NCBI GenBank assembly: GCA_910587775.1
Contig: CAJUNF010000005.1
Span: 1-58,596, forward strand
Direction of reading: 5' to 3'
Length of the DNA: 58,596 bases
DNA from: an uncultured Bacilli bacterium
GTDB taxonomy: Bacteria; Bacillota_I; Bacilli_A; RF39; UBA660
The translations under genes were made by a program, and so were the position numbers. A model generated the notes under the pieces. That model saw nothing but the letters and a program-made list of their open reading frames with translations. It made no database searches and was not told the DNA's origin. Positions 3,377 through 33,110 of this stretch are shown here, one piece after another. Position 1 is the first letter of the stretch. Each line of letters opens with the position of its first letter.

Positions 3377-3562
3377 CTATTCACTTTTTAAGCCAAGACT
3401 TCTTCTTAAAATATAATAAACATCTCCTGCATCAATGCGATTGTTGTTATTGATATCTCCACGAATTAATTCTCCAGAATTTGGCTTATTTAATCCAAGA
3501 CTCATTCTAAGAGCTAGATAATGATCCAATGGATTTATTTTTCCATCACCATTAATATCTCC
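3377..3562 (-). other. Dockerin module (sequence class B)
   Basis: Two duplicated Ca-loop + helix segments: GDINGDGKINPLDHYLALRMSLG and GDINNNNRIDAGDVYYILRRSLG. Confidence 0.75.
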
Positions 3563-6846: not shown

Positions 6847-7050
6847 TTATTCAATTGGTCTTGGATGAATAAAACTTCTCTCTAGATAATGGTTAATTAC
6901 TTTTCCTGAATCTAGTGGGTCAATCTCTCCATCAATATTTATATCACCAGCGATTGCATATGCATTTAAAAGTTCTGTTCTTTCTAGATAATGGTTAATA
7001 ATTTTTCCAGAATCTAATGGGTCAATTATTCCATCACCATTAACATCTCC
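6847..7050 (-). other. Dockerin module (sequence class A, near-perfect internal duplication)
   Basis: GDVNGDGIIDPLDSGKIINHYLER / GDINIDGEIDPLDSGKVINHYLER. These are canonical DxNxDGxIDxxD Ca loops, each followed by a helix. Confidence 0.8.
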
Positions 7051-14154: not shown

Positions 14155-14346
14155 TTAATTTACTGTGTCTATTTTCATTTGCATGTATCTTTGTAGTTTT
14201 ACACGGTCTGGTCCTGTTACTTCTTTATCATTTGTTACATCTGCTGCTATCATTTCTATTTCTTCTAATTCTACTTTCATTTGCATGTATCTTTGTAGTC
14301 TTACTCGGTCTGGTCCTGTTATGTAGCCATCTCCTGTTAAGTCTCC
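14155..14346 (-). other. Dockerin module (sequence class C)
   Basis: Duplicated segments GDLTGDGYITGPDRVRLQRYMQMK / ADVTNDKEVTGPDRVKLQRYMQMK; more divergent than classes A and B. Confidence 0.6.
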
Positions 14347-14700
14347 TTTTACTACTATGATTAGTTCATCATAACAAACACCTTCTACGATGAGTTTTAT
14401 TTTCATGAATGTTGATGCTATCATAGTTTCTTTATCTACTTCGTTTCCTTCTTTATCGTAGACATATAATGTAGTAGCTTCATTTTCAAAATGATTTAGA
14501 TAGTCTTTTAGTAAAATACCTGGTTCAGACCCATAAGTATATTCTAGTTTACTTCCATCTTCTTTTTCTTTTCGCTCTATTTGATAGACACTACTTGTTA
14601 TTTTCTTTCTAATTACTTTTACTTCTATACTTGCTTTGATATTTTCATCATAATTACTTACTACATGAATGATAGTTGTTCCATAACCAACACCTGTAAT
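14155..14700 (-). repeat. 546-bp near-identical copy A (3' end of the 2,705-aa gene) of a dispersed direct repeat; partner at 22382-22927
   Basis: Hand alignment at offset 8227 finds 2 mismatches: 14203 (synonymous CGT/CGA) and 14672 (Ile/Thr). Identity drops to roughly 75-80% from 14701 to about 14865, and beyond that only protein-level similarity remains. Confidence 0.9.
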
Positions 14701-17700: not shown

Positions 17701-20700
17701 GGTATAATCTGTGATAGAAGATGAGAACTCTGGTGAAATTTCTCCTTCTTCTAATAGTAAATATTTTAAATTCGCATTGTCTGATTTTTGCTTTTCGATT
17801 GTCAAAGTATAAGTAAGTGAGGTGGTATTATCTTCTGCTACTGTTGTGATAGTAATATCAGTTGTAGAGTCCGTTAATTCATATTCACCATTTCCCATTA
17901 CTTTTGTAGTTTTCATTTCTGGAGTTGCCATCACGGAAATCTTCTTGGTCGTACTTGGTACTGTTAAAGTATATGTAAATTCTTGATGGTTGGTATTTGG
18001 TACCCAAACTCCTTCTGTGGTAGTTACTAAAATTAAGTAAGCATTATCCGATGGTTTTCGAATCACATTTAATTCATATAATTTAATATCTCCTGTTTCT
18101 GAGATTACTGATAAAGAAATATTATTATTTCCAACTGCTAAAGCATATTTTCCATTCCCATTTATTTTGGATAATGGATTACTTTTTACACCTGTTACTG
18201 TAATAGATGAAATTTCATACGGAACTTCTACGGTATAAGATGTTTTTTCTCGGTCGAATTCAGGATTTAATGTACCTTCTGATAATATAATATCTTCTAA
18301 GTAATTATCGTTATTAGCTGGACGATTTATAACAACGTTATAGACTTTACTACTACCATCTTCTGCAATTGTCATAATTCTTTTTAGATTTGGTCCCACT
18401 TTTAATTTATTATTGTCTAATAATTTATAAGTTGTGGTACTTACTTCAGTAGTTGCTGAGATAGTAATTTCATTTACCCCTTCTTCTACATCTACAGAAT
18501 ACATTAGGGTATCTTTATCAAATTCTGGATCTAAAGAATAAGTTGTATCTCCATTTATTATAGAAATACTCTCTAAGTTGGTATTGTTATTTTTCTCTCT
18601 GGTAATTTCTAAGTAGTAAGTTTCAGTTGTTCCTGTTTCACTTGTTGTAATAATCTGAACATAATTCACACCAACAGATAATGTTTTTGTGCCTGTTCCA
18701 GTAATCTTAGTTGTATTTACCTCTGCAGCAGCTAAAATATCTACCGAATCAATATGATTTGGAACGGTTACTTGATAGGTTCCAGTATTAATATTTTGAA
18801 ATTCTGGCATTAATTCATAGGTAATTGCATCTTTTTTTACTTGTAAGTTACTTAAATAAACGTTTTCATTTTTTTCACGATATACTTTTAAGGTATAAAT
18901 TCCTGTTTCTCCATTTGGAGAAGTAATTGTGATACTAACTTCATTTAGACCAACTTCAAAATTTTCATTACCTGAAACGAAATAGGTTGCGTCTTCATCT
19001 TCTGTTTCAATATTCATTTGTTTAATTTTTGTATATTCATTTGGCACAGAGAAATAGTATTCGGTAATACTTGGATTAAAGTTTATTTCTCTTTCAGGAT
19101 CAATAATCTCTAATTTTTTTAAATCAGTATTTCCAGCCATACTTCTTGTCACTTTATAATGATATTCTGTTGTTTCGCTTTTATCTTCGCTAGTTACAGT
19201 GATAACAATGTCATTTTCACCTGCGTTTAGAGTTACTTTTCCATTTCCTGTTACGGTTTGATAAGGATGTCCTTTGGTTACTGTAAACCATACTTGTTTG
19301 ATATTTGAGGGAACAGTCACTTCATAAACGAAATGATCTGGATCAAAGTTTAGAGGATTTAAGACGCAGAAGTTCGAATTTTTAGAACATAGGGAATCTA
19401 CTAAGCCATTTAGTTCAATATTCATTGGTTTAGCATTGTTACTAGCAGGTCTTGTAACATGGATGGTAATTGTTCTTACTACTCCAGATTCTGCCATTAC
19501 TTTGATTGGAAAATCGGTAGTACCAGCAGGAACATCAAAGGTTCCAAGTCCATCGATTTTCGCAAAGTTATCTTCTGCTTTGGCAAGGAAGGTAATGCTG
19601 GTTTCTAGTTCATCTAACGTTACTGAGTATTCTAACCCTTCTAAATCAAAGGTTGGAGTGTAGTTTTTAATATTGGTTTCATTGGTAATTTCATTGGTTG
19701 CTGTAATATTTAGAGATGATAAAAAGTTGTTTTCACTTGGGAAACGAAGTGTTGAAATTCTAGCATGACCAGAACCTTTTTTAGCATAGTTACGAGTTGG
19801 ACTACTGCTTACATTATTAGTTGAAACGGTTTTGGTTTTTGTATCATTTGATACAGCACACCCATAACAATAAGTTGATTTTGTCACTGTATCATATGAT
19901 ATTAGTTTGTCAGAACCGATGTAGGAAGAACCTCCTCCACCTGCTCCATGACCACGGTTTCCGCCACCGCCACCAAAGTAGCCAGCACCTCCACCAGGTC
20001 CTCCATAAGTCATGTTACAGAAATTTCCTCCCTGACCAAAGTATCCGCGTCCACAATTATTATTGTTTCCTGTCTTACAATATCCACCTACGGTAAGACT
20101 TGCACCTGTTCCGTTGTAACCGTTATATCCAAGCGTATAGGTGTCATATCCGCTATTTCCAAGGTATCCTCCACCATGGCCATTTAAGTTTGAGGTAGAA
20201 GAACCACCTCCTCCTCCACCAGAGGCAACAATCACAATGGCATCTTTATCACTTGATAGATTAGAGAGTAAACTTGGAATGGTAGAAATATGAGTAGCTC
20301 CTCCGCCACCATATCCCCATTGACTAGAGTGCCCTGGAGTTCCTCCTCCATTGTAACCACCTTTTATAGTGTCTCCAGTACCTCCTACAGTGATATATAA
20401 TTTTGTTCCTTCTTTTAAATAAACAACACCAGTTGAATATGCACCATATCCACCGTTTCCTCCACCTTGTGAACCCCAAGTTTCTAAACGGTAATATCCG
20501 TTTGCAGGGGCTGTGAATGTTTCAATATTTCCAGTATAAGGATAATCATAGTTTAATACTAAATCAGAACTTTGTTTTTCTAAGATTATTTCATAAACTG
20601 TTGTTTTAGAATTTGGTTCTGTCACCGTAATTTTTCCAGTTGAAGTTGCTTTGATATAACCAAATCCTTCTAATTTAATAGATGCTTCTTCATCAAACGC

Positions 20701-22272
20701 AGTGGCATTTACGTTAACACTCATGGTATTCGCCATTATTTTTGCTGTATAAGTTAAAGTCTCTGGATTAAAAACAGGGTCTAGTTCAAAGTTATTGATG
20801 GATAAGGATTTTAGTTTTGAACTATGTTCTCTATTTACAATAATTTCATAAATGGTTGTAGAACTTCCATCTTCTGCAACTACAGTAATATCAAATTTAT
20901 TTTTGCCAGTATGTAAGTTGAAATTGCTTGGAAGATAAACTTCTTGGCTAAATCTTCCTTTTACTATTTCTAAATCTAAAACTTCTTTGTCATAAGGAAC
21001 ATTGATTTCGTATTTCGTTTTTTGTGGGGTGAAGTTTTCTAACCCTACTTGATCGATTAAGATGTCATCTAAATATGGATAACTTGATGGAGATCTTGTG
21101 GTATGAATCGTGTAGGTAAAAACAGTACCTGCTTCACTTGTTGAAGTAATATAAATATCATTGGTCCCTTTTAAAATACCAATGGTACCCGCCCCACTCA
21201 CTGTACTTTCTTGAAACATTGGAGATGCTATAACATCAACAAATGAAGTTTCTGAATCAAAGGAGATACTATAGTTATAAATATCTGGATCAAAGTTTGG
21301 AACTAAAGCGCTTTTAGAAAAATTTAAACTTTCTAATCGACCATCGTCATTCGCTACTAAAGAAATTCTAGCATGACCATGACCTTTTTTTGGGGTGTTT
21401 TCAAGTGGTTTTTCACTGGCACTTGAAACAGAGATTGTTTTTGTGTTTGCTACATTTGAAGTAGTACAGTCGACACAGTACATGGCTTTTGTAAATTCTT
21501 TATAAGAAATCAAACTAGAAGAACCAATATAGGAAGAACCTCCTCCAGCACCACCGTGACTTCGGTTGGAACCACCACCACCAAACCAGCCACCGCCACC
21601 GCCGTGACCGCCAATTTTATCATTATAATAGCAGTAATCTCCACCTCGACCGAATGATCCTACTCCACAACCAGACGCTCCTTTAATGGAATGTCCTCCA
21701 GCTGTTTGGGTTGCTCCAGAACCAGAATATCCATTGTATCCTTGGGTTTGAGGGTATGTGTCGTATCCATTTTTTCCTTGAATTCCACCACCTTGACTAC
21801 CATAAGGCTGAGCAGTATTTCCACCACCTGCCGCAACAATTAAAACAGAAGCTTTGTTAGATACTAAGCTTGATAATACACCTGGTATTTTAGCAATATG
21901 GGTAGCTCCGCCGCCACCATAACCAGCTTGTCCTCCGGCATTTCCACCAGTTCCACCACCGTTATATCCTCCTGCATAACGATTTCTTGGATTTTCTCCT
22001 ACATTGATATATATGGTTTGATCTTTATCTAAATAAATTACACCAGTTGCATAAGCTCCAAATCCGCCACTACTTCCTCCTTGTGCTCCCCAGGTATCTA
22101 TTTTGTAATATCCTGACACTGGAGCGGTGAAAGTTTGTTCTCCACCCGTGTATGCAAAGTTTTTTACTTTTTCAATTTCAACACTCGCACTTGGAGTTAT
22201 CATAAAAACGCAAAAAAGAATTAATGCTGTAATTAATTCAAAACAAAATAAACTGTTATTCTTTTTCTTCAT
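14155..22272 (-). CDS. Giant secreted protein (2,705 aa): signal peptide, 2 Cys-containing glycine-rich domains, about 21 cadherin-like repeats, Big_2, X-like module, C-terminal dockerin
   Basis: ORF track 14155-22368. The first 32 codons would run through the promoter and the upstream terminator. The ATG at 22272 gives a proper signal peptide, MKKKNNSLFCFELITALILFCVFMITPSASVEI. GRDs lie at 21355-22170 and 19744-20562. Big_2 motif VKWMSEDETIASVDNNGKITGVGYGTTIIHV. Tail GDLTGDGYITGPDRVRLQRYM...ADVTNDKEVTGPDRVKLQRYM. Confidence 0.9.
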   Translation of the reverse strand: MKKKNNSLFCFELITALILFCVFMITPSASVEIEKVKNFAYTGGEQTFTAPVSGYYKIDTWGAQGGSSGGFGAYATGVIYLDKDQTIYINVGENPRNRYAGGYNGGGTGGNAGGQAGYGGGGATHIAKIPGVLSSLVSNKASVLIVAAGGGNTAQPYGSQGGGIQGKNGYDTYPQTQGYNGYSGSGATQTAGGHSIKGASGCGVGSFGRGGDYCYYNDKIGGHGGGGGWFGGGGSNRSHGGAGGGSSYIGSSSLISYKEFTKAMYCVDCTTSNVANTKTISVSSASEKPLENTPKKGHGHARISLVANDDGRLESLNFSKSALVPNFDPDIYNYSISFDSETSFVDVIASPMFQESTVSGAGTIGILKGTNDIYITSTSEAGTVFTYTIHTTRSPSSYPYLDDILIDQVGLENFTPQKTKYEINVPYDKEVLDLEIVKGRFSQEVYLPSNFNLHTGKNKFDITVVAEDGSSTTIYEIIVNREHSSKLKSLSINNFELDPVFNPETLTYTAKIMANTMSVNVNATAFDEEASIKLEGFGYIKATSTGKITVTEPNSKTTVYEIILEKQSSDLVLNYDYPYTGNIETFTAPANGYYRLETWGSQGGGNGGYGAYSTGVVYLKEGTKLYITVGGTGDTIKGGYNGGGTPGHSSQWGYGGGGATHISTIPSLLSNLSSDKDAIVIVASGGGGGGSSTSNLNGHGGGYLGNSGYDTYTLGYNGYNGTGASLTVGGYCKTGNNNNCGRGYFGQGGNFCNMTYGGPGGGAGYFGGGGGNRGHGAGGGGSSYIGSDKLISYDTVTKSTYCYGCAVSNDTKTKTVSTNNVSSSPTRNYAKKGSGHARISTLRFPSENNFLSSLNITATNEITNETNIKNYTPTFDLEGLEYSVTLDELETSITFLAKAEDNFAKIDGLGTFDVPAGTTDFPIKVMAESGVVRTITIHVTRPASNNAKPMNIELNGLVDSLCSKNSNFCVLNPLNFDPDHFVYEVTVPSNIKQVWFTVTKGHPYQTVTGNGKVTLNAGENDIVITVTSEDKSETTEYHYKVTRSMAGNTDLKKLEIIDPEREINFNPSITEYYFSVPNEYTKIKQMNIETEDEDATYFVSGNENFEVGLNEVSITITSPNGETGIYTLKVYREKNENVYLSNLQVKKDAITYELMPEFQNINTGTYQVTVPNHIDSVDILAAAEVNTTKITGTGTKTLSVGVNYVQIITTSETGTTETYYLEITREKNNNTNLESISIINGDTTYSLDPEFDKDTLMYSVDVEEGVNEITISATTEVSTTTYKLLDNNKLKVGPNLKRIMTIAEDGSSKVYNVVINRPANNDNYLEDIILSEGTLNPEFDREKTSYTVEVPYEISSITVTGVKSNPLSKINGNGKYALAVGNNNISLSVISETGDIKLYELNVIRKPSDNAYLILVTTTEGVWVPNTNHQEFTYTLTVPSTTKKISVMATPEMKTTKVMGNGEYELTDSTTDITITTVAEDNTTSLTYTLTIEKQKSDNANLKYLLLEEGEISPEFSSSITDYTVSVPYEVLKGSFHIETEDENATFEIINNDSFEVGENTVTIRVTSESQKTKDYTVIVTRQESVSGSDYLASLIIDHGSLDPEFKKELQYYEVSVPYQTTTIHVTATSEDTEAVVSGNGDYHLEVGKNTILIRVLSTEGKIRDYQIVVTRAPSDDARLKNLSLKDDMLSPNFDTDTYSYTTTTTKKELDFESILPMEKDANYQIIGNQFTENKDYEVIIEVTAPDGISKKDYTIHVTKNPNKNNNLASLEVLGYTLSPEFNKGVTLYTLTVPNDVNSVMIEATAESDTAVITGTGTKTINVGLNQLIVEVTSEMGTKKAYTILLTKEENNINNLSDLIVHNGTMTPEFNTHVSTYDVVVENEEEELDVTVMLESDSSTYEIKENHLEVGNNTVFIIVTAEDGTTNTITLNVTRKSISSALLEDLKIKNYPFEFNPYINHYDLLVNYETDTLDLTIIPKDANATYKVTGNESLVVGDNTITIEVTASDNQTKEIYTLNVTKQKYATTFLDYLYTSEGDVTPSFDKKTLEYSLDVTNNIRNIEIFGESSDTSATVTGLGEYELNVGENKIVITVTSTTGVIRKYYVTVNRAPSDILSLNNLVVRSGMTTYELDPTFNPDTLEYNVNVPIGTTNVTIDAEITEPTTVTGDGEKDLHAGLNDFVLTVTSEAGETKNITIHITRESSDNNHLISLIPSIGELEPSFSYEETSYTINLDSSASVLSFDVITEQEFAKVTGVDAKIVPDGTSTREIVIEAENGDTRTITITINKNREDNAKLSFLEVTDYPFIEDFDADTFEYHLTVPNSKKVLLPSEIIATPQDESATIKLSESLKLSTTNTNEFIITVTAKDGFTKQTYKILVTREKGSNALLDNLEVKQGKLENSFASENFTYNWMIPNTMTVTASDILPTPQDINATVEISGGENKFIIKVTSEDGATSKEYTLNITIDNNFDLESIIPDETRILLDVGELKQITYTLNPINTSFTEVKWMSEDETIASVDNNGKITGVGYGTTIIHVVSNYDENIKASIEVKVIRKKITSSVYQIERKEKEDGSKLEYTYGSEPGILLKDYLNHFENEATTLYVYDKEGNEVDKETMIASTFMKIKLIVEGVCYDELIIVVKGDLTGDGYITGPDRVRLQRYMQMKVELEEIEMIAADVTNDKEVTGPDRVKLQRYMQMKIDTVN
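19744..20562 (-). other. Glycine-rich domain (GRD) copy 2 of the 2,705-aa protein
   Basis: LVLNYDYPYTGNIETFTAPANGYYRLETWGSQGGGNGGYGAYSTGVVYL..LYITVGG...GGYNGGG...GGGGATHIS...IVIVASGGGGGG...GHGGGYLG...GGPGGGAGYFGGGGGNRGHGAGGGGSSYIGS...CYGC...KKGSGHARIS. Confidence 0.7.
21355..22170 (-). other. Glycine-rich domain (GRD) copy 1 of the 2,705-aa protein
   Basis: KNFAYTGGEQTFTAPVSGYYKIDTWGAQGGSSGGFGAYATGVIYL..IYINVG...GGYNGGGTGG...GGGGATHIA...LIVAAGGG...GGGIQG...GGHGGGGGWFGGGGSNRSHGGAGGGSSYIGS...CVDC...KKGHGHARIS. Confidence 0.7.
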
Positions 22273-22381: not shown

Positions 22382-22573
22382 TTAATTTACTGTGTCTATT
22401 TTCATTTGCATGTATCTTTGTAGTTTTACTCGGTCTGGTCCTGTTACTTCTTTATCATTTGTTACATCTGCTGCTATCATTTCTATTTCTTCTAATTCTA
22501 CTTTCATTTGCATGTATCTTTGTAGTCTTACTCGGTCTGGTCCTGTTATGTAGCCATCTCCTGTTAAGTCTCC
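22382..22573 (-). other. Dockerin module (sequence class C, identical to 14155-14346)
   Basis: Same GDLTGDGYITGPDRVRLQRYM / ADVTNDKEVTGPDRVKLQRYM tail. Confidence 0.6.
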
Positions 22574-22927
22574 TTTTACTACTATGATTAGTTCATCATA
22601 ACAAACACCTTCTACGATGAGTTTTATTTTCATGAATGTTGATGCTATCATAGTTTCTTTATCTACTTCGTTTCCTTCTTTATCGTAGACATATAATGTA
22701 GTAGCTTCATTTTCAAAATGATTTAGATAGTCTTTTAGTAAAATACCTGGTTCAGACCCATAAGTATATTCTAGTTTACTTCCATCTTCTTTTTCTTTTC
22801 GCTCTATTTGATAGACACTACTTGTTATTTTCTTTCTAATTACTTTTACTTCTATACTTGCTTTGATATTTTCATCATAATTACTTACTACATGAATGGT
22901 AGTTGTTCCATAACCAACACCTGTAAT
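22382..22927 (-). repeat. 546-bp near-identical copy B of the direct repeat (partner at 14155-14700)
   Basis: See copy A. Offset is 8227 bp, with 2 mismatches found by eye. Confidence 0.9.
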
Positions 22928-25900
22928 ATTACCAAATTCATCAACACTTGCAATTGTTTCATCATCACTCATCCATTTTACTTCTGTAAAACTTGTTATT
23001 TCTGGAGTAAAAGTATATGTGATTTGTTTGGTTTCAGCAATATCTAGTAAGATACTTGTTTCACTTGGTGTTATACTTTCTAAATCAAATTTTGCTCGTT
23101 TTATGATAATTTTATATTCTTGGGTTGTATAACCATCTCTTGCAATTACTTCAATAATATATTCGGTACTTGCACCTGCATAAAGATTTAAATCCCCCAT
23201 CAAATTTACTGTCGCATTTGGATCCATTGGAATGGCTGTTATTTCATTTTGATAAAGGATATCTTTGCTATGTGGTACTTCAATAGTATAAGTAAACGTA
23301 TCGGAATCAAAGGTAATTGGATAATCAATAATTGCTAGTTCTTTTAGTCTTACTTCACTTGCAGTTTCTTTATTAATATTGATTTTATAAACTCTTACAC
23401 TTCCATCTTCTGCAGTCACAGTTATTTCTCTAACACTTAAGCCTTCTGGAACAATTTTATTTTCTAATCCTTTTACAGAGGCTAAATTACTTTCTAATGT
23501 AGCATTAAAACTTAATTCAGATATTTCATAAGATAGATCTAAATTATATTCTAATAATTCTTTATTAAATTCTGGAGATAATACCCCAGTACTTGGAATT
23601 AAACTAGAAAGATAATTGTTACTTGATACTTCTTTTGTGACATTTAAAATGTATGTATTTATAGTACCATCTTCTGCTTTTACTTCGATTTCAAAGCGAT
23701 TTAATCCTGTAACTAGTTCTTTCGTTCCAGTGTTAGTTACTGTGGCAAATTCACTTTCTGCTTCTGCTTTGATTTGAATAAAGTTTAAATCACTTGGAAC
23801 TGTTAGTGAGTATTCATTTGTTTCTTTTTGAAATTCTGGATTAAGTGGTAAGTCTTCTTTGATGTGCATTACTTTTAAGTTTTTTAAATAGTTATTATTT
23901 GCTGGAGTTCTTATAACATTTACTTTATAAGTTCTAGTAATACCTATTGCTGATTTTACTTTAATAACTATTAAATTCGAACCAATATTTAATTCATGTT
24001 CTCCTAGACCACTTATAATTTTAGAGCCTACATCTTGGGTGGTAGCATTTATTGTGATGTTTTGTGTTTCTCTTGGTACTTCAATCGTATAATCCATTAC
24101 AGTTGGATCAAAGATAGGATCAAGATTTCCAATAGATGGAATTAAACTACTTAAATAATTATTCGTTGACATTTCCTTGTTTACATAAATTATGTATTCT
24201 AAAGTAGTTGTGGAATCACTTGCTGTTACTTTAATATGAATTTCATTCATTCCAATTTCTAATGAATCCTGGCCAGTTATTTCAACATTAGCATTTTTAT
24301 CTTCTGCAATAGCAGTTATGTTTAATTGTTCTGTATCATTTGGAACTGTAATAAAATATTCTAATATTTCTTTATTAAATTCAGTATCTAGTGCAAAATT
24401 TGTAACATTTAATTCTTTTAAGAATGCACTTATTATACTTTCACGAATTATTGTTATGTTGTAGCTTCTTACTAAACCTGATTCGCTTGTTACAAGGATG
24501 GTAATATTATTTTCTCCTTCGTTTAAATTATAATTTCCAAACCCTGTAATGGTTGCATTTACATCTTCTGCTTTTCCATTTAAAGAAATCGATTCAATTT
24601 TATGTGAAACATTTATGGTATAATCTGTAGTTTCTTTTTGAAATATTGGATTTAGTGTACCTTCATTTGTATTTAAGCTTGCTAAATAATTGTTATCACT
24701 TGCTTCTTTGGTAATTAAAACGGTATACACTTTTTTATCTTCTGTTTCACTTGTTACTACTATTTCAAAATAATTTTCTCCAGTTTCTATCTTTTTTAAA
24801 CCAGTCCCCGTAATAGTTGCATTAGTATCTTCTGGGTTTGCACTAATTACGACACTATTTACATCATTATTTACTTCGGTAGCATAGAAAGTTACACCTT
24901 TATGGAAGTCAGGTGTTAGATTATATCCAACTACTTCTAAAGATGCTAGATTATTATTTTTACTTCCTGTTTTTTCTACAATAATCTTATACTCTTTGGT
25001 CGTTTCTCCATCTGGTGCTGTCACTTTTATGGTAACTATATTTTCTCCTGTTTGAAAATTTTGATTACCAATGATTTCATAAGTAGCATCTGTTTCAGTT
25101 GGGTTTATCATGGTAAATTCTAAATTCGTTTTACTTGTTGTTAGATGATATTCCGTTACGTCTTTAGAAAAACTTGGGGATAATACATGATTTTTAACAA
25201 CTAAATTTGTTAAAGATGCATCACTACTTTTCTTTCTTGTAATTATTATTTGATAATCCTTTTGAATTTGAGAGTTTCCAACTACAAAGATTGGAATCGA
25301 GTTTTTTCCTACTTTTAATGGGTAGGTTCCTAGTCCTTTTATGGTAGCTGACTCATCAAAAGCACTCGCAGTAATGGTAATATCTTCAATATCATGTTCT
25401 ACCGTCAGTTCATAATTTAGAATAGTTGGATTAAAGGTAGGTGTTAGTTCTCCTCTATTGGTATCAAGAGAACTAAGAGTTAAATCTTCATTTGTACTCT
25501 CTTGTTTTATGATATGAGTCGTATAAATTTTAACATTACCATTTTGAGCAGTAACCACGATATCAATATCTTTTGTGTCGTTTGGATTTAAACTACTTAC
25601 GTCAATGGTAAATTTGTAAGTATCAATATTATTACTATCAGTAACATCTACAAAAGCATAAGGACTTTCTGGAATTGCTGTCATATGTAATATATTGGTA
25701 TTAAACGGAACTTTTACTTCATAATAGATGGTTGTTTCATTGAAAATCGGAGATAGTCCCCCTTCTTCAATATATAAGAAATCTAAGTCATCGTTATCTG
25801 ATTTATCTCTTACTACTTTAATTACATAGTCTTTAGCCGAACCATCTTCCGCTGTAACTCGTAATGTTATTTTATTTTCTTCTCCTGGAATTAAGTTATA

Positions 25901-28900
25901 GGTTCCATTTCCAGTAACATTTGAGGTTTTGGATTTTGGTGACCCTGTAATATCAATACTACTAATTTCATATTGAACGTTTATTAAGTAATCATAATTT
26001 TTGGTAGGGTCTATATTTTCTATTACGACACTACCGCGATTGTTGGTAATAGATTCTAATTCAGTATTATCATCAAGTCTTTTATTTACTTTGATGGTAT
26101 AAACTCTATCTACTCCATCTTCACTAGTAACAGTTATTGTAATTATATTTTCACCTTTTACTAATGCATGCGTTCCATTTCCACTAATTGTTGAAGCATC
26201 ATCTTCCTTGATTCCTTTTAAAGTAATTTCATTTACAGATCCATCTACATCAATGGTATATGATAGATTTTCTTTATTAAATTCTTCGTTTAGTGTTCCA
26301 CCTGTTACTTCAATATTTTGAAGATAATTATTAGTACTTGATTCTTTTAAGACAACAATTTGATAAACCTGATAGGTTTTATCTTCTGCAATACTAGTTA
26401 TAACAATAATATTTGATTTTTCTGTTAGATTATTATTTCCTCTTATTGTATAAGTAGTGGTATTTTCTTCTGGTGTTACCTTAACATTTAATTTATCTAC
26501 ACTTTTAGGAATTGTCACAGTATAATTTTTGATATCTTTTGAAAATTCAGGACTTATTTCATAGCCTTCAATTTCAATATTTAATAAAGAGCTATTATTA
26601 TTACGAGATTTCATAATAACTATTTCATAAATGTTAGTGTCTCCAGATTCACTTGTAACTGTAATTGGGAAGCTATTTTTACCACTTACTAGTTCAAAAA
26701 CACCTGTTCCAGTTACTGATCCAGCTTCTGAAGCGGCATTAATCGTAATTTTTTTGGTAGTTGCATCAACAACAGCAGTATAGTCATTTAAAAGTTTATT
26801 AAATGTTGGAGTAAGTTCTACTTTTTCTTGGTTTTCTTTTATAACTTCTAAATTACTTAAGAACGTATTGGTACTTTGCTCTTTGTAAGTATATAAAATA
26901 TAAGTTTTTTGATTTTTATTTGGAGCAGTTACTAAAATACGAATTTCATTTAATCCAGTTACTAAATTTTCATTTCCAGAAATTGTAACTGTTGCATCAG
27001 GATTTTCTGGAATCGCTTCTAATTCTATTTGATTAAATTCTGCTGGAATTGTAATGTAATACTCATAAGTAGATGGGTTAAATGTTATTTCTGTTTTTTC
27101 ATTTTGAGGATTGGTAATATTTAAAATAGCAAGATTATTGTTACCTGAATCATCTTTTCTTATTTTATAAGTATATGTAGTAGTATGAAGTCCATCTTCG
27201 CTTGTTATATCAATTTCAATGATATTGATACCACTATGAATTTCAAAGGTATCACTTGTTTGTTCTATACGATTTTCTTCTGCATTTTCTGGTTCGTTAC
27301 GATAATATTTTATCGTTTGATAATCACTTTTTAAGATAGGTGTTAAAGATATTTTTTCTGTCAGAAATGGAAGTAAGATTTCATAACTTGTAATGTCACT
27401 ATCAAATGTATAGTTACAGTAAGAAGGACTTAAACCACATAAATAAGCTACAGGATTTTTTAAGACGATATCTTTTGATTTACTATCATCAGATGGTTCG
27501 CGATTTATTTTTAAGGTGTAGGTTTTATTTGCTCCATCTTTTGTAGAAACAACAATTTTATGTTCATTTAATCCTGGGTGTAATGTAATATCACCATTTC
27601 CTAAAATGTTTGCTTCTTGAGATTTTGGAACTGCTAATATGTCGATTGAATTGTATTCTTTTGGTAAATCGATTTCATAAGTATAAGTCCATGGTTCAAA
27701 AGGAATGGTTACATTTCCATGATCTATTATAATGTTATCTAAGAAGGTATCTCCGACAATACCTGGAGTGGCTGTAATTTTAGCATATCCATTTCCACGG
27801 TTTCCATCCATTAAATTGGTTCCATCGTAGTTTGGCATTTTTTGATTACCAGAAATCATTTCTGTATCATTTAAATAATATTTTTGATCTACTGAATAAC
27901 CGTTTGGAACGTTGTTTTTAGAATTAGATGTCCAGATAAAGCCTGAACCTCCTCCAGCACCATGCCATCCAGAGCCACGAGAATTATATCCGCCATACCA
28001 GCCCCCTCCTGCTCCTGGTCCGCCATATCTTGCACTGATGTAACTAATGGTAGAAGCACTTGCGTTAAATCCTCCACCAAAAGACCAACCAGTAGTTTGC
28101 GTTCCTGGTGCACCATAAGAAGTTGAATAAGAGTAGCCAGATAATCCGCCACCATCTCCTCCGCGTTCACCGTCCATTCCGCCGCCACCTCCGCCGCCAG
28201 CGACAATAAGACGTGATAAAAGAGATGTTTGGTCATTCCAAGGACCACTTACAAGACGAATATCGGTAGACCCTCCACCACTTGCAGCAGGATCATTACT
28301 GGTGTTGATAGCTTTGTAACCTGAACCTCCACCATTAAAGCTTTGGGCTGTTGTACATATTTTTCCACCACACCAAGTACCTTCTTTTCCAACGTAAATA
28401 TAGAGAGTATCTCCCTTATTTAAATAAACAGAACCTTTGGCGTATCCTCCAAGTCCGCCAATACCTAGTTCACTATTTTGATGATGTCCTCCACCACCAG
28501 CACCCCATACTTCTAAAGTATAAAGTGCTGGAGATGGGGCAATAAATGTTTGATAATCACCTGTGTATGTAAATCCTTCGTTTACAGGGTCTAATAGTGG
28601 TTCTATTCGTTTTAGATTTAAAGTATAAACTGTACTACTAACTCCATCTAAATCAACATTTATAGTAATTTGTTTTTCTTTTTCTGAAACATATCGATTT
28701 TCTACAATTGTTACTTTGGCTTCTTCAAAAAATGGTGTTGCAATCATTGGGACTTCTCTTGTAAAGTTTAAAATTTCTAGAGTGTAATCTTTTTTATTAG
28801 GTGAAAAAGCACTTGTTAAAACACCACCATCAATTTCTAAACTTTTTAATAGACTAGCTCTTTTTCTTTTAAAGGTAAAAGTATATGGTTGATTTTGTAA

Positions 28901-31666
28901 ATCTCCTTCACTTGAAACTACAATATTAATTACTAATTCATTTTCTGTAAATTCATAAATTGTATTTTCTGGTATTTTTTGTCCTGGATATAATTTTAAT
29001 AGTTCTAAATTAATTTTTGTTATTTCTGTTGGTAATTCCATTTCGTAATCAAACTTAGTTGGGTCAAAATTCTCATAAAGTAGACCATTTACTTTAAAGC
29101 CTTTTAACTGAGCACTAGCGCTTGCTGGTCTTGTTACATGTATTGTATAAATAGAGATTTCTCCATTTAAATTTGTAAATGTAATGGTAAAGTCTTGGTT
29201 TCCTGCTGGAACATTAAATGTATCTAGACCTGTTATTAAAGCTTGTTGTTTTTTCGTGATAGCATCAAAAGTAATTGTAGTATCTTCAACATTTAAAGAA
29301 AGATCATAATCAAATGTACCTTCATGAAATTCTGGAGTTAACACGCCTTTATCTACTGTTATTTCTAATAGTTCATCTAAATCCTCTGTGGAATAATAAG
29401 AAATTTTAGCATATCCTGCGGCATTATTTCCTTGCATGACACTACTTCCATCATAAGTTGGTATGTATTGATTTCCTGCTAAAGTTTCGGTTTCTTTTAA
29501 ATAATATTTGTTTGTTGCTATATATCCGTCTGGAACATTTTTAGAAGAAGATTCATTTAAAACAAATCCGGATCCTCCTCCAGCACTATGGAATCCTCTT
29601 CCCAAAGAGTTTTTTCCACCATACCAGCCGCCACCGCCACCAGATCCACCATATTGGGAACTAATGTATCCGATGGTACTTGCATTAGCGTTAAAGCCTC
29701 CACCAAAAGACCAACCTGTAGTTTGGGTTCCGGGTGCACCATAAGAGGTAGAATAAGAGTATCCAGATAATCCTCCGCCATCTCCTCCACGTTCGCCATC
29801 CATACCAGATCCACCACCACCGCCTGCAACGATGATACGTGATAGAAGTGAGGTTTCATTGTCCCAAGGACCAGGAACAAGACGAATATCGGTAGCCCCT
29901 CCACCACTGGCAACAGGATCTCTAGTTGAATTCATAGTTTTGTAACCAGTTCCTCCACCATTAAAGCTTGGAGATGAAATACAAATAGAATTGCCACACC
30001 AAGAACCTTCTGCTCCAACATAAATATACAATTTATCTCCCGCATTTAAATATAGCTTTCCTTTGGAATATCCTCCTAGTCCAGCTATTCCTAATTCTGA
30101 ATTTTGGTGAGATCCACCACTTCTTGCTCCCCATACTTCTAAGGTATAATAAGTGGAGTATGGAGCAATAAATTCTTGATAATCTCCAGTATAATTAAAT
30201 GTTGTTTCTAGTGGTTTACTATTTACCGTTTGTTCAAATTCTCTATTAATATTAAACTTATAAGTTGTATTCTCACAATTTGGTTTACTTACATTAATAG
30301 TGACTATATTTTTTCCTACACTCAAATCATTTGAGGATATGGTGTAAGTTGTTTCTTCATCAGTTTCAATCAGTGGATTAAATTTAGTTGTAGTATGATT
30401 TACTGTAATATCGTATTCATAAACATTACTTTCAAACGAAGTAAAGTTTTCAAATGTTACATTATTTAATTTAGCTTTAGCAATTACGGGATAAATATTG
30501 TAGATCAAGATATTTCCTTCTAAATCCATTAATATTACTTGATGAATCTTATCTTTTTCTAAAGTTGTTTCTCCTACATTGTACGCCCACATAAATTTTG
30601 TTTCATCATAGGTTATAGTAGTTTTAAAAGGAGATGCTGGTAAAATTGTTTCATAATTTAAAGTGTTATTTTCAAAAAAAGGAGTTAGTTCTAAATCAGT
30701 TAAAGATATCGGTGGCATTTCTCCATCTAAAGGAGATGTTTTTTCTAATAAGGTTATTTTGGCATATCCATCCGCTTTATTTCCAATCATCGTACTTTTT
30801 CCATCATGAGTTGGCATGGATGCATTTCCAGCTATTGTTTTTGCATCGGTTAAAAAATACTGTTCACTAACATGATAACCTTTTGGGACATTTAAAACAG
30901 ACTCTGGAGTCCATATAAAACCAGACCCTCCACCAGATCCTTCCCATTTACTAGGACCAGCTGAGTAATATCCGCCATACCAGCCGCCGCCTCCACCATT
31001 TCCACCATAAGTAGAATTAATGTAAGAAAGGGTATTTACATTGGCGCTAAATCCTTCTCCAAATTTCCATCCAGTAGTTTGAGTTCCACCATAACCAGAT
31101 TCAGCATTAACAAGAATTCCTTCTAAACCACCACCGTGGCCACCAGGTTCGCCATTATCTACACCGCCTCCTCCACCACCGCCTGCAACGATGATACGTG
31201 ATAAAAGAGAAGATGAATCATTCCATTCTCCTTTTGTAAAACGAATGTCTGTAGCTCCTCCACCACTGGCAACAGGATTCCAAATATCACTAGCAGCAGT
31301 TCTTTTCCAGCCAGAGCCACCACCATTATATCCTCCAGCAACGGTACAATATCCACCTTGGCAAAACGTACCTTTTCCACCAACATAGACATATAATTTC
31401 TCACTTGTTTTTAATTGTATTACACCTGCCGAGTAACCGCCTTTACCACTTGGTCCAAGATAGCTTTGTTGATGGTCTCCTCCGCCTTCTGCTCCCCAAA
31501 CTTCTAATTTATATTTTCCTTGAACAGGGGCAATAAATTCTTGTGAGTCACCTGTATATGAAAAAACAAATTCTTCATTAATTTCTACAGCCTTAATTTT
31601 TAGTGGAAAAAAAAGGAATAAAAAAAGAAAAATAAAGAAATTTTTTTGATATTTATTGATACTCAT
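22382..31666 (-). CDS. Giant secreted protein (3,094 aa): signal peptide, 3 glycine-rich domains interleaved with cadherin-like repeats (about 22 in total), Big_2, X-like module, C-terminal dockerin
   Basis: ORF track 22382-31681 (TTG start). The ATG at 31666 preceded by GGGAAGTG gives MSINKYQKNFFIFLFLFLFFPLKIKAVEI. GRDs lie at 30746-31576, 29393-30208 and 27770-28582. The last 170 aa or so are identical to the neighbouring giant protein. Confidence 0.9.
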   Translation of the reverse strand: MSINKYQKNFFIFLFLFLFFPLKIKAVEINEEFVFSYTGDSQEFIAPVQGKYKLEVWGAEGGGDHQQSYLGPSGKGGYSAGVIQLKTSEKLYVYVGGKGTFCQGGYCTVAGGYNGGGSGWKRTAASDIWNPVASGGGATDIRFTKGEWNDSSSLLSRIIVAGGGGGGGVDNGEPGGHGGGLEGILVNAESGYGGTQTTGWKFGEGFSANVNTLSYINSTYGGNGGGGGWYGGYYSAGPSKWEGSGGGSGFIWTPESVLNVPKGYHVSEQYFLTDAKTIAGNASMPTHDGKSTMIGNKADGYAKITLLEKTSPLDGEMPPISLTDLELTPFFENNTLNYETILPASPFKTTITYDETKFMWAYNVGETTLEKDKIHQVILMDLEGNILIYNIYPVIAKAKLNNVTFENFTSFESNVYEYDITVNHTTTKFNPLIETDEETTYTISSNDLSVGKNIVTINVSKPNCENTTYKFNINREFEQTVNSKPLETTFNYTGDYQEFIAPYSTYYTLEVWGARSGGSHQNSELGIAGLGGYSKGKLYLNAGDKLYIYVGAEGSWCGNSICISSPSFNGGGTGYKTMNSTRDPVASGGGATDIRLVPGPWDNETSLLSRIIVAGGGGGSGMDGERGGDGGGLSGYSYSTSYGAPGTQTTGWSFGGGFNANASTIGYISSQYGGSGGGGGWYGGKNSLGRGFHSAGGGSGFVLNESSSKNVPDGYIATNKYYLKETETLAGNQYIPTYDGSSVMQGNNAAGYAKISYYSTEDLDELLEITVDKGVLTPEFHEGTFDYDLSLNVEDTTITFDAITKKQQALITGLDTFNVPAGNQDFTITFTNLNGEISIYTIHVTRPASASAQLKGFKVNGLLYENFDPTKFDYEMELPTEITKINLELLKLYPGQKIPENTIYEFTENELVINIVVSSEGDLQNQPYTFTFKRKRASLLKSLEIDGGVLTSAFSPNKKDYTLEILNFTREVPMIATPFFEEAKVTIVENRYVSEKEKQITINVDLDGVSSTVYTLNLKRIEPLLDPVNEGFTYTGDYQTFIAPSPALYTLEVWGAGGGGHHQNSELGIGGLGGYAKGSVYLNKGDTLYIYVGKEGTWCGGKICTTAQSFNGGGSGYKAINTSNDPAASGGGSTDIRLVSGPWNDQTSLLSRLIVAGGGGGGGMDGERGGDGGGLSGYSYSTSYGAPGTQTTGWSFGGGFNASASTISYISARYGGPGAGGGWYGGYNSRGSGWHGAGGGSGFIWTSNSKNNVPNGYSVDQKYYLNDTEMISGNQKMPNYDGTNLMDGNRGNGYAKITATPGIVGDTFLDNIIIDHGNVTIPFEPWTYTYEIDLPKEYNSIDILAVPKSQEANILGNGDITLHPGLNEHKIVVSTKDGANKTYTLKINREPSDDSKSKDIVLKNPVAYLCGLSPSYCNYTFDSDITSYEILLPFLTEKISLTPILKSDYQTIKYYRNEPENAEENRIEQTSDTFEIHSGINIIEIDITSEDGLHTTTYTYKIRKDDSGNNNLAILNITNPQNEKTEITFNPSTYEYYITIPAEFNQIELEAIPENPDATVTISGNENLVTGLNEIRILVTAPNKNQKTYILYTYKEQSTNTFLSNLEVIKENQEKVELTPTFNKLLNDYTAVVDATTKKITINAASEAGSVTGTGVFELVSGKNSFPITVTSESGDTNIYEIVIMKSRNNNSSLLNIEIEGYEISPEFSKDIKNYTVTIPKSVDKLNVKVTPEENTTTYTIRGNNNLTEKSNIIVITSIAEDKTYQVYQIVVLKESSTNNYLQNIEVTGGTLNEEFNKENLSYTIDVDGSVNEITLKGIKEDDASTISGNGTHALVKGENIITITVTSEDGVDRVYTIKVNKRLDDNTELESITNNRGSVVIENIDPTKNYDYLINVQYEISSIDITGSPKSKTSNVTGNGTYNLIPGEENKITLRVTAEDGSAKDYVIKVVRDKSDNDDLDFLYIEEGGLSPIFNETTIYYEVKVPFNTNILHMTAIPESPYAFVDVTDSNNIDTYKFTIDVSSLNPNDTKDIDIVVTAQNGNVKIYTTHIIKQESTNEDLTLSSLDTNRGELTPTFNPTILNYELTVEHDIEDITITASAFDESATIKGLGTYPLKVGKNSIPIFVVGNSQIQKDYQIIITRKKSSDASLTNLVVKNHVLSPSFSKDVTEYHLTTSKTNLEFTMINPTETDATYEIIGNQNFQTGENIVTIKVTAPDGETTKEYKIIVEKTGSKNNNLASLEVVGYNLTPDFHKGVTFYATEVNNDVNSVVISANPEDTNATITGTGLKKIETGENYFEIVVTSETEDKKVYTVLITKEASDNNYLASLNTNEGTLNPIFQKETTDYTINVSHKIESISLNGKAEDVNATITGFGNYNLNEGENNITILVTSESGLVRSYNITIIRESIISAFLKELNVTNFALDTEFNKEILEYFITVPNDTEQLNITAIAEDKNANVEITGQDSLEIGMNEIHIKVTASDSTTTLEYIIYVNKEMSTNNYLSSLIPSIGNLDPIFDPTVMDYTIEVPRETQNITINATTQDVGSKIISGLGEHELNIGSNLIVIKVKSAIGITRTYKVNVIRTPANNNYLKNLKVMHIKEDLPLNPEFQKETNEYSLTVPSDLNFIQIKAEAESEFATVTNTGTKELVTGLNRFEIEVKAEDGTINTYILNVTKEVSSNNYLSSLIPSTGVLSPEFNKELLEYNLDLSYEISELSFNATLESNLASVKGLENKIVPEGLSVREITVTAEDGSVRVYKININKETASEVRLKELAIIDYPITFDSDTFTYTIEVPHSKDILYQNEITAIPMDPNATVNLMGDLNLYAGASTEYIIEVIARDGYTTQEYKIIIKRAKFDLESITPSETSILLDIAETKQITYTFTPEITSFTEVKWMSDDETIASVDEFGNITGVGYGTTTIHVVSNYDENIKASIEVKVIRKKITSSVYQIERKEKEDGSKLEYTYGSEPGILLKDYLNHFENEATTLYVYDKEGNEVDKETMIASTFMKIKLIVEGVCYDELIIVVKGDLTGDGYITGPDRVRLQRYMQMKVELEEIEMIAADVTNDKEVTGPDRVKLQRYMQMKIDTVN
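27770..28582 (-). other. Glycine-rich domain (GRD) copy 3 of the 3,094-aa protein
   Basis: NEGFTYTGDYQTFIAPSPALYTLEVWGAGGGGHHQNSELGIGGLGGYAKGSVYL..LYIYVG...FNGGGSGY...ASGGGSTDIRL...SRLIVAGGGGGGGMDGERGGDGGGLSGY...GTQTTGWSFGGGFNA...GGPGAGGGWYGG...GAGGGSGFIW...GNGYAKIT. Confidence 0.75.
29393..30208 (-). other. Glycine-rich domain (GRD) copy 2 of the 3,094-aa protein
   Basis: TTFNYTGDYQEFIAPYSTYYTLEVWGARSGG...GLGGYSKGKLYL..LYIYVG...FNGGGTGY...ASGGGATDIRL...SRIIVAGGGGGSGMDGERGGDGGGLSGY...GTQTTGWSFGGGFNA...GGSGGGGGWYGG...AGGGSGFV...AAGYAKIS. By eye, about 80% DNA identity to copy 3 in the core. Confidence 0.75.
30746..31576 (-). other. Glycine-rich domain (GRD) copy 1 of the 3,094-aa protein
   Basis: EEFVFSYTGDSQEFIAPVQGKYKLEVWGAEGGG...GKGGYSAGVIQL..LYVYVGG...GGYNGGGSGW...ASGGGATDIRF...SRIIVAGGGGGGGVDNGEPGGHGGGLEG...GTQTTGWKFGEGFSA...GGNGGGGGWYGG...GSGGGSGFIW...ADGYAKIT. 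Confidence 0.75.
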
Positions 31667-31848: not shown

Positions 31849-32307
31849 TTATTTTTCTTCAAAACCACATTCTAAAACGATTTCCATACGATAGTCTTTT
31901 TTGCCATATGGTTCTTGTGGATAAATAATTACTTTTGTATCTTTATTATTACATGCTTCATTTGTTTTAGGATTTTTAAAAGCATCTAGCTTTTCTTTAT
32001 TTTCTTCTTCCTTATATCTAGATAATCCATCTAAATTAATTTTAATTCCTAACTCTGTATAGTTTTTTAAAAATTTTGCTCTTTCCTCATCATTTTTACC
32101 AATTTGTTCATAGTATAAATCTTCATAGAAAGATACGCCCATTTCCTTCATATATTTTTTTAGTGTTTCTTCTTTACTATTTCCACTTAATAATACAATT
32201 ACTAAAATAATGATTGCTACTAGTGCAATTAAGCCAATTCCGGCAATCAAACATTTCTTTTTATCTTTTTTTAATTCTTCAATCCATAATTTTATTTTGT
32301 TTTTCAT
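31849..32307 (-). CDS. Hypothetical membrane-anchored protein (N-terminal TM helix, 152 aa), co-oriented directly downstream of srtB
   Basis: ATG at 32307. Contains KKCLIAGIGLIALVAIIILVIVLLSG as a TM anchor. The Lys/Glu-rich ectodomain has two Cys. No recognised family. Confidence 0.7.
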   Translation of the reverse strand: MKNKIKLWIEELKKDKKKCLIAGIGLIALVAIIILVIVLLSGNSKEETLKKYMKEMGVSFYEDLYYEQIGKNDEERAKFLKNYTELGIKINLDGLSRYKEEENKEKLDAFKNPKTNEACNNKDTKVIIYPQEPYGKKDYRMEIVLECGFEEK

Positions 32308-32348: not shown

Positions 32349-33062
32349 TTATAATTCATCAAATATTCCTGCATGAATAATAACTCTTTTGGTTTTGTCA
32401 TAATAACAAGTCGATAATGTTAATGTTTTTTTGGGAATTTGATTCATAACAAATGATGAATCATTTTTTTGAAAGTATTTTTCTTGTTTATTCAAAGGAT
32501 TTTCATCCGATTCTTCTGTAATATATGCTGCATAAACTTGATATTCTTGTTTTTCAAATTCAGTATGAATTATGATTTTAATATCATTTCCTAATTTACC
32601 TTCTTGTAATTTTATAAGTTCTCCAAAAATAGTATCTTTATAAGTGTTATGTCCAAATAAAATAGTATTGTTATCCGTAAAATCCGATTTATTTTGATAA
32701 TTCATAAATATAGATCCATAAATATTATAATTTTTTAGGACATCATGATTTAGATAAAAGGTATTGTTTATTCCTTTTACAATCGCATAATTAATGTTTG
32801 TTTTAGGAATCTCAATCCAGCCTATGATATCTGGATTTAATTCTTTTAATTTGGAAAAGTTTATTTTTTCTTCCAACGCTCCATCCGTCTCATCTATTTG
32901 AATTACTTGATTATAAATGATTTGTTCTACTTCTTCTGATTTTTTTTCATAATATTTTTTCTTTCCTATTTGATAGATGGATATACCAAATATTATGAAT
33001 AAGATACAAATGGAAATATTAATTATTAATTTTTTATATTTTAATTTTAATTTTTTTTTCAT
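32349..33062 (-). CDS. srtB: Class B sortase
   Basis: N-terminal TM anchor (LIINISICILFIIFGISIY). Motifs: IGWIEIPKTNINYAIV, NTILFGHN (catalytic His), TLTLSTCYY (TLxTC Cys), KRVIIHAG (Arg). The ORF track starts at a TTG at 33086 that lacks an SD; the ATG at 33062 (MKKKLKLKYKK...) is preferred, but the start remains uncertain. Confidence 0.85.
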   Translation of the reverse strand: MKKKLKLKYKKLIINISICILFIIFGISIYQIGKKKYYEKKSEEVEQIIYNQVIQIDETDGALEEKINFSKLKELNPDIIGWIEIPKTNINYAIVKGINNTFYLNHDVLKNYNIYGSIFMNYQNKSDFTDNNTILFGHNTYKDTIFGELIKLQEGKLGNDIKIIIHTEFEKQEYQVYAAYITEESDENPLNKQEKYFQKNDSSFVMNQIPKKTLTLSTCYYDKTKRVIIHAGIFDEL

Positions 33063-33110
33063 ATAGTCATTGTAACATTCTTTCAAAAAAAAAAGAAGAT
33101 TGATCCTCTT

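Follow-up and report, generated by a model that had tools for sequence, protein, structure and literature searches.

Three ALK/LTK-type glycine-rich domains on a giant dockerin-bearing protein encoded in a surface-protein island of a mouse-gut bacterium

The stretch of DNA considered here (the window, 58,596 nucleotides) is contig CAJUNF010000005.1 of assembly GCA_910587775.1, from an uncultured mouse-gut bacterium of the Bacilli. It contains a 33-kb island of surface-protein genes, all on one strand, of which gene A encodes a giant secreted protein (protein A) with three glycine-rich domains (GRDs) of the ALK/LTK type, a long row of cadherin-like domains and a C-terminal dockerin. We propose that protein A is a surface fibril displayed through a cohesin-dockerin interaction, with the GRDs as distal binding heads, and we give this reading a probability of about 0.6.

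Sequence and fold of the glycine-rich domains

The three GRD segments all lie in frame in one minus-strand open reading frame (ORF) of 3,094 amino acids, as the original prediction from the sequence had placed them (Table 1). Glycine makes up 22-25% of the residues within these segments as compared to 5% in the remaining part of protein A. When the copies were aligned, the ordered series of motifs quoted in that prediction was found in the same order in all three. The amino-acid identity is 55% between copies 1 and 2, 59% between copies 1 and 3 and 70% between copies 2 and 3 (63, 64 and 73%, respectively, at the DNA level), so that copy 1 is the more distant one, as had been supposed. The DNA identity of about 80% attributed to the cores of copies 2 and 3 was roughly right: values of 80-90% are reached only in some 60-nt core windows, such as 28070-28190, and the overall value is 73%.

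The Pfam family to which the segments had been assigned, PF12810 (ALK_LTK_GRD, formerly Gly_rich), matches protein A in three stretches with an E-value of 5.2e-128 and a score of 426.5 bits, the gathering cut-off being 24.5 bits. All three copies are matched far above this threshold and the best stretch spans model positions 7-243 of 243. This result agrees with the earlier view that the segments are not random low complexity. In the alignment of the GRD family, the invariant glycine motifs are separated by eight segments that vary in sequence and are prone to indels; variable loops of copy 1 are at its positions 34-42, 90-102, 154-160 and 206-212.

A structural model of copy 1 was obtained with AlphaFold 2 (AF2), on a homologue alignment derived from a 57-sequence profile. 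The domain is predicted to be ordered, with a mean predicted local distance difference test (pLDDT) value of 94.8, a predicted template modelling (TM) score (pTM) of 0.93 and a pLDDT of at least 90 in 235 of the 277 residues; some of the variable segments coincide with lower-confidence parts of the model. Most residues are classified by DSSP as neither helix nor strand, which is at most an indirect sign of polyglycine-II helices, packed in a hexagonal lattice, in the glycine runs. A Foldseek search of the PDB with this model gave, as its best 21 matches, only GRD or TNF-like/glycine-rich (TG) domains of ALK/LTK (E-values between 1.7e-10 and 5e-7, probability 1.0, TM 0.34-0.49, identity 14-18%). 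The matches that came after these were a chain that appears to belong to the Mycobacteriophage Bxb1 tail tip (9d93_Qa) and the fibre of cyanophage Pam3, the latter weak (E=0.02). S16 gp38 was not among the fold matches of the model.

A phmmer search with GRD1 as a single sequence gave no ALK match among PDB sequences. A profile of 57 relatives, searched against the PDB, gave only ALK-family chains, with a marginal E-value of about 4e-4. The alignment of this profile to ALK is colinear motif by motif (WGAxGG, LYiyVG, GGGGAT, iiVAGGGG, FGxGG, GGGGGwYGG and GGSGF), and the parallel in motif order with ALK/LTK drawn in the original prediction is thus supported.

Protein A is not itself an ALK/LTK-type receptor kinase. 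In fact, the Pfam scan of the protein returned only GRD, cadherin-like, Big_2 and dockerin domains; this identity was rejected because no EGF-like, transmembrane or kinase part was found. The window's scanned ORFs included no gene resembling ALKAL, and there is no reason to expect a cytokine of the ALKAL type as a ligand of these GRDs.

The GRDs fall into two subtypes. Among 634 tabulated GRDs, Asp110 and Arg127 (numbering of copy A1, the reference being mapped onto the hidden Markov model, HMM) occur together in 504 and are both missing in 130, which mostly have His110; in no case was only one of the two found. Both subtypes are present in the window, as the three GRDs of protein A (A1-A3) are of the D/R type and the two encoded by the neighbouring gene B (B1 and B2) are of the H type. 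The co-occurrence fits an interacting structural pair, or it could simply reflect two clades.

Architecture of protein A and anchoring parts of the island

Starting from the N-terminus, protein A is made of a typical Sec-type signal peptide, GRD1, about two cadherin-like domains, GRD2, three cadherin-like domains, GRD3, 16 further cadherin-like domains, a Big_2 domain, a module of about 88 residues and the dockerin. An iterated HMM search detected 21 cadherin-like domains, to which a degenerate one in the first spacer is added, giving a total of about 22. The earlier description of a dockerin-bearing stalk protein of 3,094 residues was exact as to the length of the ORF, and the C-terminal dockerin is matched by PF00404 with 28.1 bits against a cut-off of 22.9; the match is close to the threshold and both calcium-loop repeats (DLTGDGYITGPD and DVTNDKEVTGPD) are visible. 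The module that precedes the dockerin is possibly X-module-like. The GRDs had been placed together at the stalk's distal end, and this held only in part: all of them are contained in the N-terminal 1,300 residues, but they are not stacked at the tip, being spaced by about two and then by three cadherin-like domains.

Dockerins (PF00404) were found on four of the island proteins, namely A, B, C and E. Protein F, in turn, has a cohesin at 2768-3136, which was detected when its N-terminal 163 residues were scanned alone (PF00963, E=8.7e-11, 42.6 bits vs. a cut-off of 24.1). The top 50 matches of the F cohesin model in a fold search of the PDB were all cohesins, type II first, although the low confidence of the model makes this supporting evidence only. 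A word-index homology search with this cohesin found no relatives, and a phmmer search of the 6-kb flanks of related loci gave no cohesin either, which is uninformative because these flanks are short. The substrates of class B sortases have a motif of the NP(Q/K)(T/S)(N/G/S) type, followed by a hydrophobic segment and a basic tail. The C-terminus of F (80-181) contains an NPQTG motif, a hydrophobic segment and the basic tail KKAKLK and is, as read from its sequence, a sortase sorting signal. A sortase gene and a gene for a small membrane protein lie upstream of gene A; the best match of the sortase was TIGR03064 srtB, with 122.6 bits, below the cut-off of 153.75. The island thus appears to encode all parts of a cohesin-dockerin display system. 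In the six island proteins A-F, Pfam detected neither glycoside hydrolases nor lyase catalytic domains nor known carbohydrate-binding modules; a cellulosome in the strict sense was therefore rejected, because none of these proteins has a catalytic domain.

These parts can be arranged in the following model. Protein F would be covalently linked to the peptidoglycan by the class-B-like sortase through the NPQTG signal and, together with the sortase, is the likely wall anchor of the dockerin proteins. Protein A would be held on the cell non-covalently, through binding of its C-terminal dockerin to a cohesin, and its best candidate partner would be the single N-terminal cohesin of F, which is encoded 19 kb downstream; B, C and E would likewise dock on cohesin through their dockerins. 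The approximately 22 cadherin-like domains and the Big_2 domain, all β-sandwiches, would form an extended stalk that projects the GRDs away from the cell, and it is for this reason that the N-terminal 1,300 residues are considered distal. Each GRD would be a β-sandwich carrying a rigid glycine lattice, with the variable loops as the proposed binding surface, as at the tip of a phage tail fibre. Having three non-identical heads, protein A would then attach multivalently to a ligand at the surface of a gut target, be it the host, a microbe or a particle. We infer that the GRDs face outward and bind a ligand, in line with the original prediction; the outward topology is better grounded than it was, because genes for a sortase and for a cohesin protein bearing a sortase signal are present in the island.

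As for the neighbouring genes, gene B is a paralogue of gene A. Its GRDs, at 19747-20553 and 21355-22167 (PF12810, 193.9 bits in two stretches), are 36-38% identical to the copies in A, read 'GGGGATHI' where A reads 'GGGATDIR', and have extra insertions that contain cysteines. The 3' ends of genes A (22382-22930) and B (14155-14700) are about 100% identical over approximately 550 nt, which encode the pre-dockerin module and the dockerin. In the metagenome-assembled genome (MAG) GCA_951801145.1, gene C comes directly after gene A and gene B is missing, as a result of either recombination between the repeats or assembly collapse. Proteins D and E have in common an N-terminal domain of about 125 residues with cysteines and no Pfam match, and D is membrane-anchored via its C-terminal transmembrane helix, which is followed by a charged cytoplasmic tail.

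The island is flanked by housekeeping genes (those for Lon, trigger factor, GreA, U32 peptidases, YceG, alanyl-tRNA synthetase and transketolase), and no phage genes were found among the scanned ORFs. A prophage origin was rejected because of these flanks, and the island is neither a prophage nor a plasmid. The alanyl-tRNA synthetase ORF (45167-46915, minus strand) encodes 582 residues, with the catalytic and SAD domains present. This seems short for the bacterial enzyme, which may here be truncated, split or of a naturally short form. Near the right end of the window, and unconnected to the GRDs, are genes for a LexA repressor (53329-53961, plus strand) and for an IS200-type (Y1) transposase (57937-58392, minus strand).

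Table 1. Features of protein A, of the island and of two related phage genes. Coordinates are those of the window, except in the last two rows, where they refer to the phage locus.
Feature	Coordinates	Strand	Evidence
Gene A, secreted giant protein, 3,094 aa from ATG	22382-31666	minus	ORF and translation; Pfam; same protein in public MAGs
Signal peptide, aa 1-27, MSINKYQKNFFIFLFLFLFFPLKIKA followed by VE; cleavage site inferred	31586-31666	minus	read from sequence
GRD copy 1, aa 31-307, 277 aa, D/R subtype	30746-31576	minus	PF12810; AF2 model; Foldseek
Spacer, aa 308-486, one detected and one degenerate cadherin-like domain	30209-30745	minus	iterated HMM match 405-473; pattern of first domain read from sequence
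GRD copy 2, aa 487-758, 272 aa	29393-30208	minus	PF12810 stretch and alignment
Three cadherin-like domains, aa 774-1018	28583-29392	minus	iterated HMM domain map
GRD copy 3, aa 1029-1299, 271 aa	27770-28582	minus	PF12810 stretch and alignment
Stalk, 16 cadherin-like β-sandwich domains, aa 1317-2855	23087-27769	minus	PF12733, E=2.5e-127; domain map
Big_2, aa 2864-2930	22877-23077	minus	PF02368, E=1.5e-8
Module of ~88 aa before dockerin, no Pfam match	22592-22858	minus	identical in genes A and B
Dockerin, aa 3031-3086, two calcium-loop repeats	22409-22576	minus	PF00404, 28.1 bits vs. cut-off 22.9
Sortase, class-B-like	32349-33086	minus	PF04203, E=1e-18; best NCBIfam match TIGR03064 srtB
Single-pass membrane protein, 152 aa, between sortase gene and gene A, no family match	31849-32307	minus	ORF scan
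Gene B, 2,705-aa paralogue, two H-subtype GRDs, 21 cadherin-like domains, Big_2, dockerin identical to that of A	14155-22272	minus	Pfam; HMM map; alignment
Gene C, 2,410 aa, 20 cadherin-like domains, dockerin, no GRD	6847-14079	minus	Pfam and HMM map
Gene D, 5 cadherin-like domains, transmembrane helix, cytoplasmic tail	4283-6649	minus	Pfam/HMM map and sequence
Gene E, small protein, Big_2 and dockerin	3377-4264	minus	Pfam
Gene F, candidate anchoring scaffold, N-terminal cohesin, 8 Big_2, C-terminal sorting signal	77-3301	minus	Pfam; fold search; sequence
phiCDHM11 gp21 (L082)	6992-8272		annotated hypothetical or 'glycine rich family protein'
phiCD27 gp26 (L083)	6992-8725		annotated hypothetical or 'glycine rich family protein'

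Relatives of the domains and weighing of the proposed role

Gene A is intact at 3,094 residues in nine assemblies. The exact protein is present in MAG GCA_951801145.1, with PF12810 already listed in its public precomputed annotation, and the 90% cluster of protein A has 23 members, including eight other full-length alleles of 3,094 residues with no frame disruption. The closest GRDs in species-representative genomes are 55-59% identical and belong to uncultured Bacilli MAGs from mouse, rabbit, human (Hadza) and ruminant guts. Several of the related MAGs have orthologues of gene A that are colinear with it and have three GRDs in the same places, and a dockerin also forms the end of the product of one neighbouring gene there.

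A scan of 1.84 billion cluster representatives gave 6,706 members of the GRD family at an E-value of 1e-3 or lower and 3,460 at 1e-10 or lower, in proteins of up to 7,663 residues. The GRD loci confirmed in species-representative genomes number more than 507 and belong to Bacillota, Bacteroidota, Spirochaetota and Proteobacteria. The relatives carry from 1 to 9 full-length GRDs per protein, while the matched stretches number as many as 14; three as a fixed copy number, as in a single-chain TNF-like trimer, was consequently rejected as a rule. The short proteins with a single GRD are often encoded in tandem arrays. At three loci (L035, from a MAG of Bacillales, CAMNEE010000002.1, L032 and L026), 9-11 GRD matches were observed in a single open frame that extends past both ends of the fetched DNA. 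The family also occurs in the mouse-gut protist Tritrichomonas musculus. GRD proteins of 300-880 residues from phages, giant viruses and Tritrichomonas are named 'receptor protein-tyrosine kinase' in the databases, and on phage and protist proteins this label, which appears to have been transferred on the basis of the GRD alone, is probably erroneous.

The GRD is also found on other fibres. Among the 120 best homologues, 19 are type IV pilin-like proteins (N-terminus KGFTL[VI]E, PF07963) with a C-terminal GRD; many of the short GRD proteins are such fusions (within homologues P0014-P0114, and at loci L011, L016, L056, L066 and L070). The model of copy 1 matches proteins of gut phages with TM values of 0.76-0.85 and 36-39% identity, as well as virion or short-tail-fibre proteins of cyanophages, and 133 viral structure predictions carry the GRD fold. 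Three phage protein families (PHROGs 1589, 5811 and 7388), all of unknown function, match the GRD with E-values from 1e-46 to 5e-32. In Clostridioides difficile phages such as phiCDHM11 and phiCD27, the gene that comes immediately after the annotated tail-fibre gene, upstream of the holin/endolysin lysis cassette, codes for a protein with a GRD of 35-45% identity at its N-terminus. The tail fibre gp24 of Pam3 has a TNF-like and glycine-rich tip, in which the glycine stem is conserved and the distal tip varies; its authors likened it to C. elegans ALK and to S16 gp38 and ascribed host-receptor recognition to it (PMC9608196). Pilins, the tail region of the C. difficile phages and Pam3 gp24 are three independent contexts that place the GRD on a fibre.

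Several results weigh against a cohesin-anchored fibril with binding heads. A single cohesin, that of F, is seen as against four proteins with dockerins, and these dockerins are of at least three sequence types, C and E being unlike A and B in this respect; for these reasons the pairing of F with A is uncertain. The cohesin of F was missed both by the whole-protein Pfam scan and by the public precomputed annotation, and the single-sequence AF2 model of the fragment was poor (pLDDT 46). The global superposition of the GRD on ALK/LTK is only moderate, with TM below 0.5, and the GRD of the C. difficile phage proteins lies at the N-terminus, not at the usual distal end of a tail fibre. Finally, the heads are no more variable than the stalk, either between strains (3.2 vs. 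4.3% variable sites in nine alleles) or between species, when orthologues were compared. Diversifying selection on the heads was dropped for this lack of hypervariability, and nothing points to an arms race or to specificity switching, because the heads do not vary more than the stalk.

This conservation would be expected if the GRDs were self-association modules, which pair or trimerise with GRDs of neighbouring fibrils or cells and lead to aggregation, a biofilm or a surface mesh, since a homophilic interface should be conserved and not diversified. In Pam3 gp24, moreover, a TNF-like sandwich to which the fold is related forms trimers (PMC9608196), and the wide range of copy numbers (1-9 full-length GRDs, up to 14 stretches) recalls beads on a string. 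However, copy numbers of 1, 2, 3, 4 and at least 10 do not favour a fixed trimer, and the pilin fusions and phage forms of the GRD suggest that a foreign surface is bound, so that we regard self-association as unlikely.

We are similarly sceptical of a cellulosome-like capture of nutrients, in which the GRDs would act as carbohydrate-binding modules for insoluble dietary or host polysaccharide and keep the cell on its food source. The closest known system of a dockerin binder and an anchored cohesin serves cellulose adhesion in gut Ruminococcus, and protein F gave a weak match to the N-terminal beta domain of hyaluronate lyase. Against this explanation, on the other hand, are the lack of Pfam matches to glycoside hydrolases, lyase catalytic domains and known carbohydrate-binding modules in A-F and the GRD relatives in phages and pilins, whose targets are cell surfaces.

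The great length and the repetitive nature of protein A, and the use of the same fold by phages of Firmicutes, might also suggest a passive protective or spacing coat, or a decoy for phages with GRD-type receptor-binding proteins, having no specific ligand. This appears very improbable, considering that the three distinct GRD copies keep their positions from species to species, an argument for a specific function, and that the window has no defence-system context.

The window is AT-rich (GC about 29%), with local rises at 28-32 kb and 20-22 kb that are due to GGN codons, and the short overlapping ORFs at 27889-28248 and 29557-29913 are by-products of the glycine-rich composition. Low complexity, or a decaying or chimeric gene devoid of a folded domain, might be read into this raised GC (0.38 vs. 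0.29) and these spurious ORFs, but was excluded as an artefact by the match to a curated family (E=5e-128), the confident model (pLDDT 94.8), nine intact alleles of 3,094 residues and 6,706 related cluster representatives.

The proposal of a cohesin-dockerin displayed fibril with GRD heads can be extended, tentatively, to a joint reading in which the island is a non-enzymatic 'adhesion-some' and the GRD is one universal receptor-binding head. This wider reading seems to us possible but rather doubtful. The adhesion-some may consist of the sortase-anchored single-cohesin stalk F, displaying interchangeable dockerin-tagged giant fibrils (A, B, C and E), two of which would have ALK-type heads of the two subtypes (D/R and H), which co-vary perfectly at one residue pair. 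The same head may be carried by phage tail fibres, type IV pili, dockerin-anchored fibrils, gut protists and metazoan ALK/LTK. If the latter were true, the abundant GRD proteins of gut bacteria would be a tractable route to the targets of the fold and to the origin of the ligand-binding domain of ALK.

Comparison with known systems

The GRD of ALK/LTK is medically important and structurally unusual, and the prokaryotic and phage family is much larger. This domain family is already catalogued and very common, and giant proteins with multiple GRDs are an established pattern; the locus is for this reason a good example and not a discovery. It adds a well-organised member to a known family and leaves the knowledge of PF12810 itself unchanged. 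The statement that no bacterial member has an assigned function was consistent with our search of the literature, in which no paper on the function of a bacterial GRD was found, and NCBIfam has no model for the giant protein A or for the bacterial GRD. The locus of this mouse-gut commensal is a clean, conserved and well-delimited example, in which three distinct heads, a defined stalk and probable anchoring parts are encoded together, and because these parts are well delimited it is a practical starting point for the expression of single GRDs and for ligand screening.

The extracellular TG supradomain of human ALK and LTK and of C. elegans SCD-2 (PDB 7NX1, 7MZY, 7N00, 7LS0 and 7LIR) has the fold and the colinear motif order in common with the GRDs of protein A, at the low identity and marginal profile E-value reported above. 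In ALK, it is to the GRD/TG part of the receptor that the activating ligand binds (bioRxiv 10.1101/2023.11.25.568672). Most bacterial copies typically have the D110/R127 pair, which ALK has replaced, and protein A differs from these receptors in the domains that accompany the GRD.

With Pam3 gp24 and S16 gp38 the GRDs of protein A have in common the use of conserved glycine motifs as a rigid platform and of the variable segments between them as the proposed recognition surface. Nevertheless, these phage proteins form trimeric virion fibres of 250-600 residues, whereas in protein A the GRD occurs three times in one cellular protein of 3,094 residues, with no hypervariability between strains. 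The modular type IV pilins have the GRD as a C-terminal binding module, that is, the same head on a different fibre; protein A instead has a Sec signal peptide and dockerin anchoring in place of pilus assembly.

The anchoring logic, namely a binder with a C-terminal dockerin and a cell-bound cohesin, is that of the CttA-type adhesion of Ruminococcus flavefaciens and R. champanellensis (PDB 4IU3). The best fold matches of the F cohesin are type II cohesins, the class that binds X-dockerins. ScaE, the cohesin partner of CttA, is sortase-anchored. CttA has an X-dockerin, as compared to the module of about 88 residues that precedes the dockerin of protein A, and a complex of the CttA XMod-Doc with CohE exists (PMC7456326). 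The heads of protein A, however, are GRDs and not cellulose-binding modules, and the island has neither enzymes nor a multi-cohesin scaffoldin. With respect to the PF12810 family, no difference was found at the level of the domain; it is the context that is particular, with three GRDs on a dockerin-bearing stalk of about 22 domains, in an island where a cohesin protein bearing a sortase signal is encoded as well.

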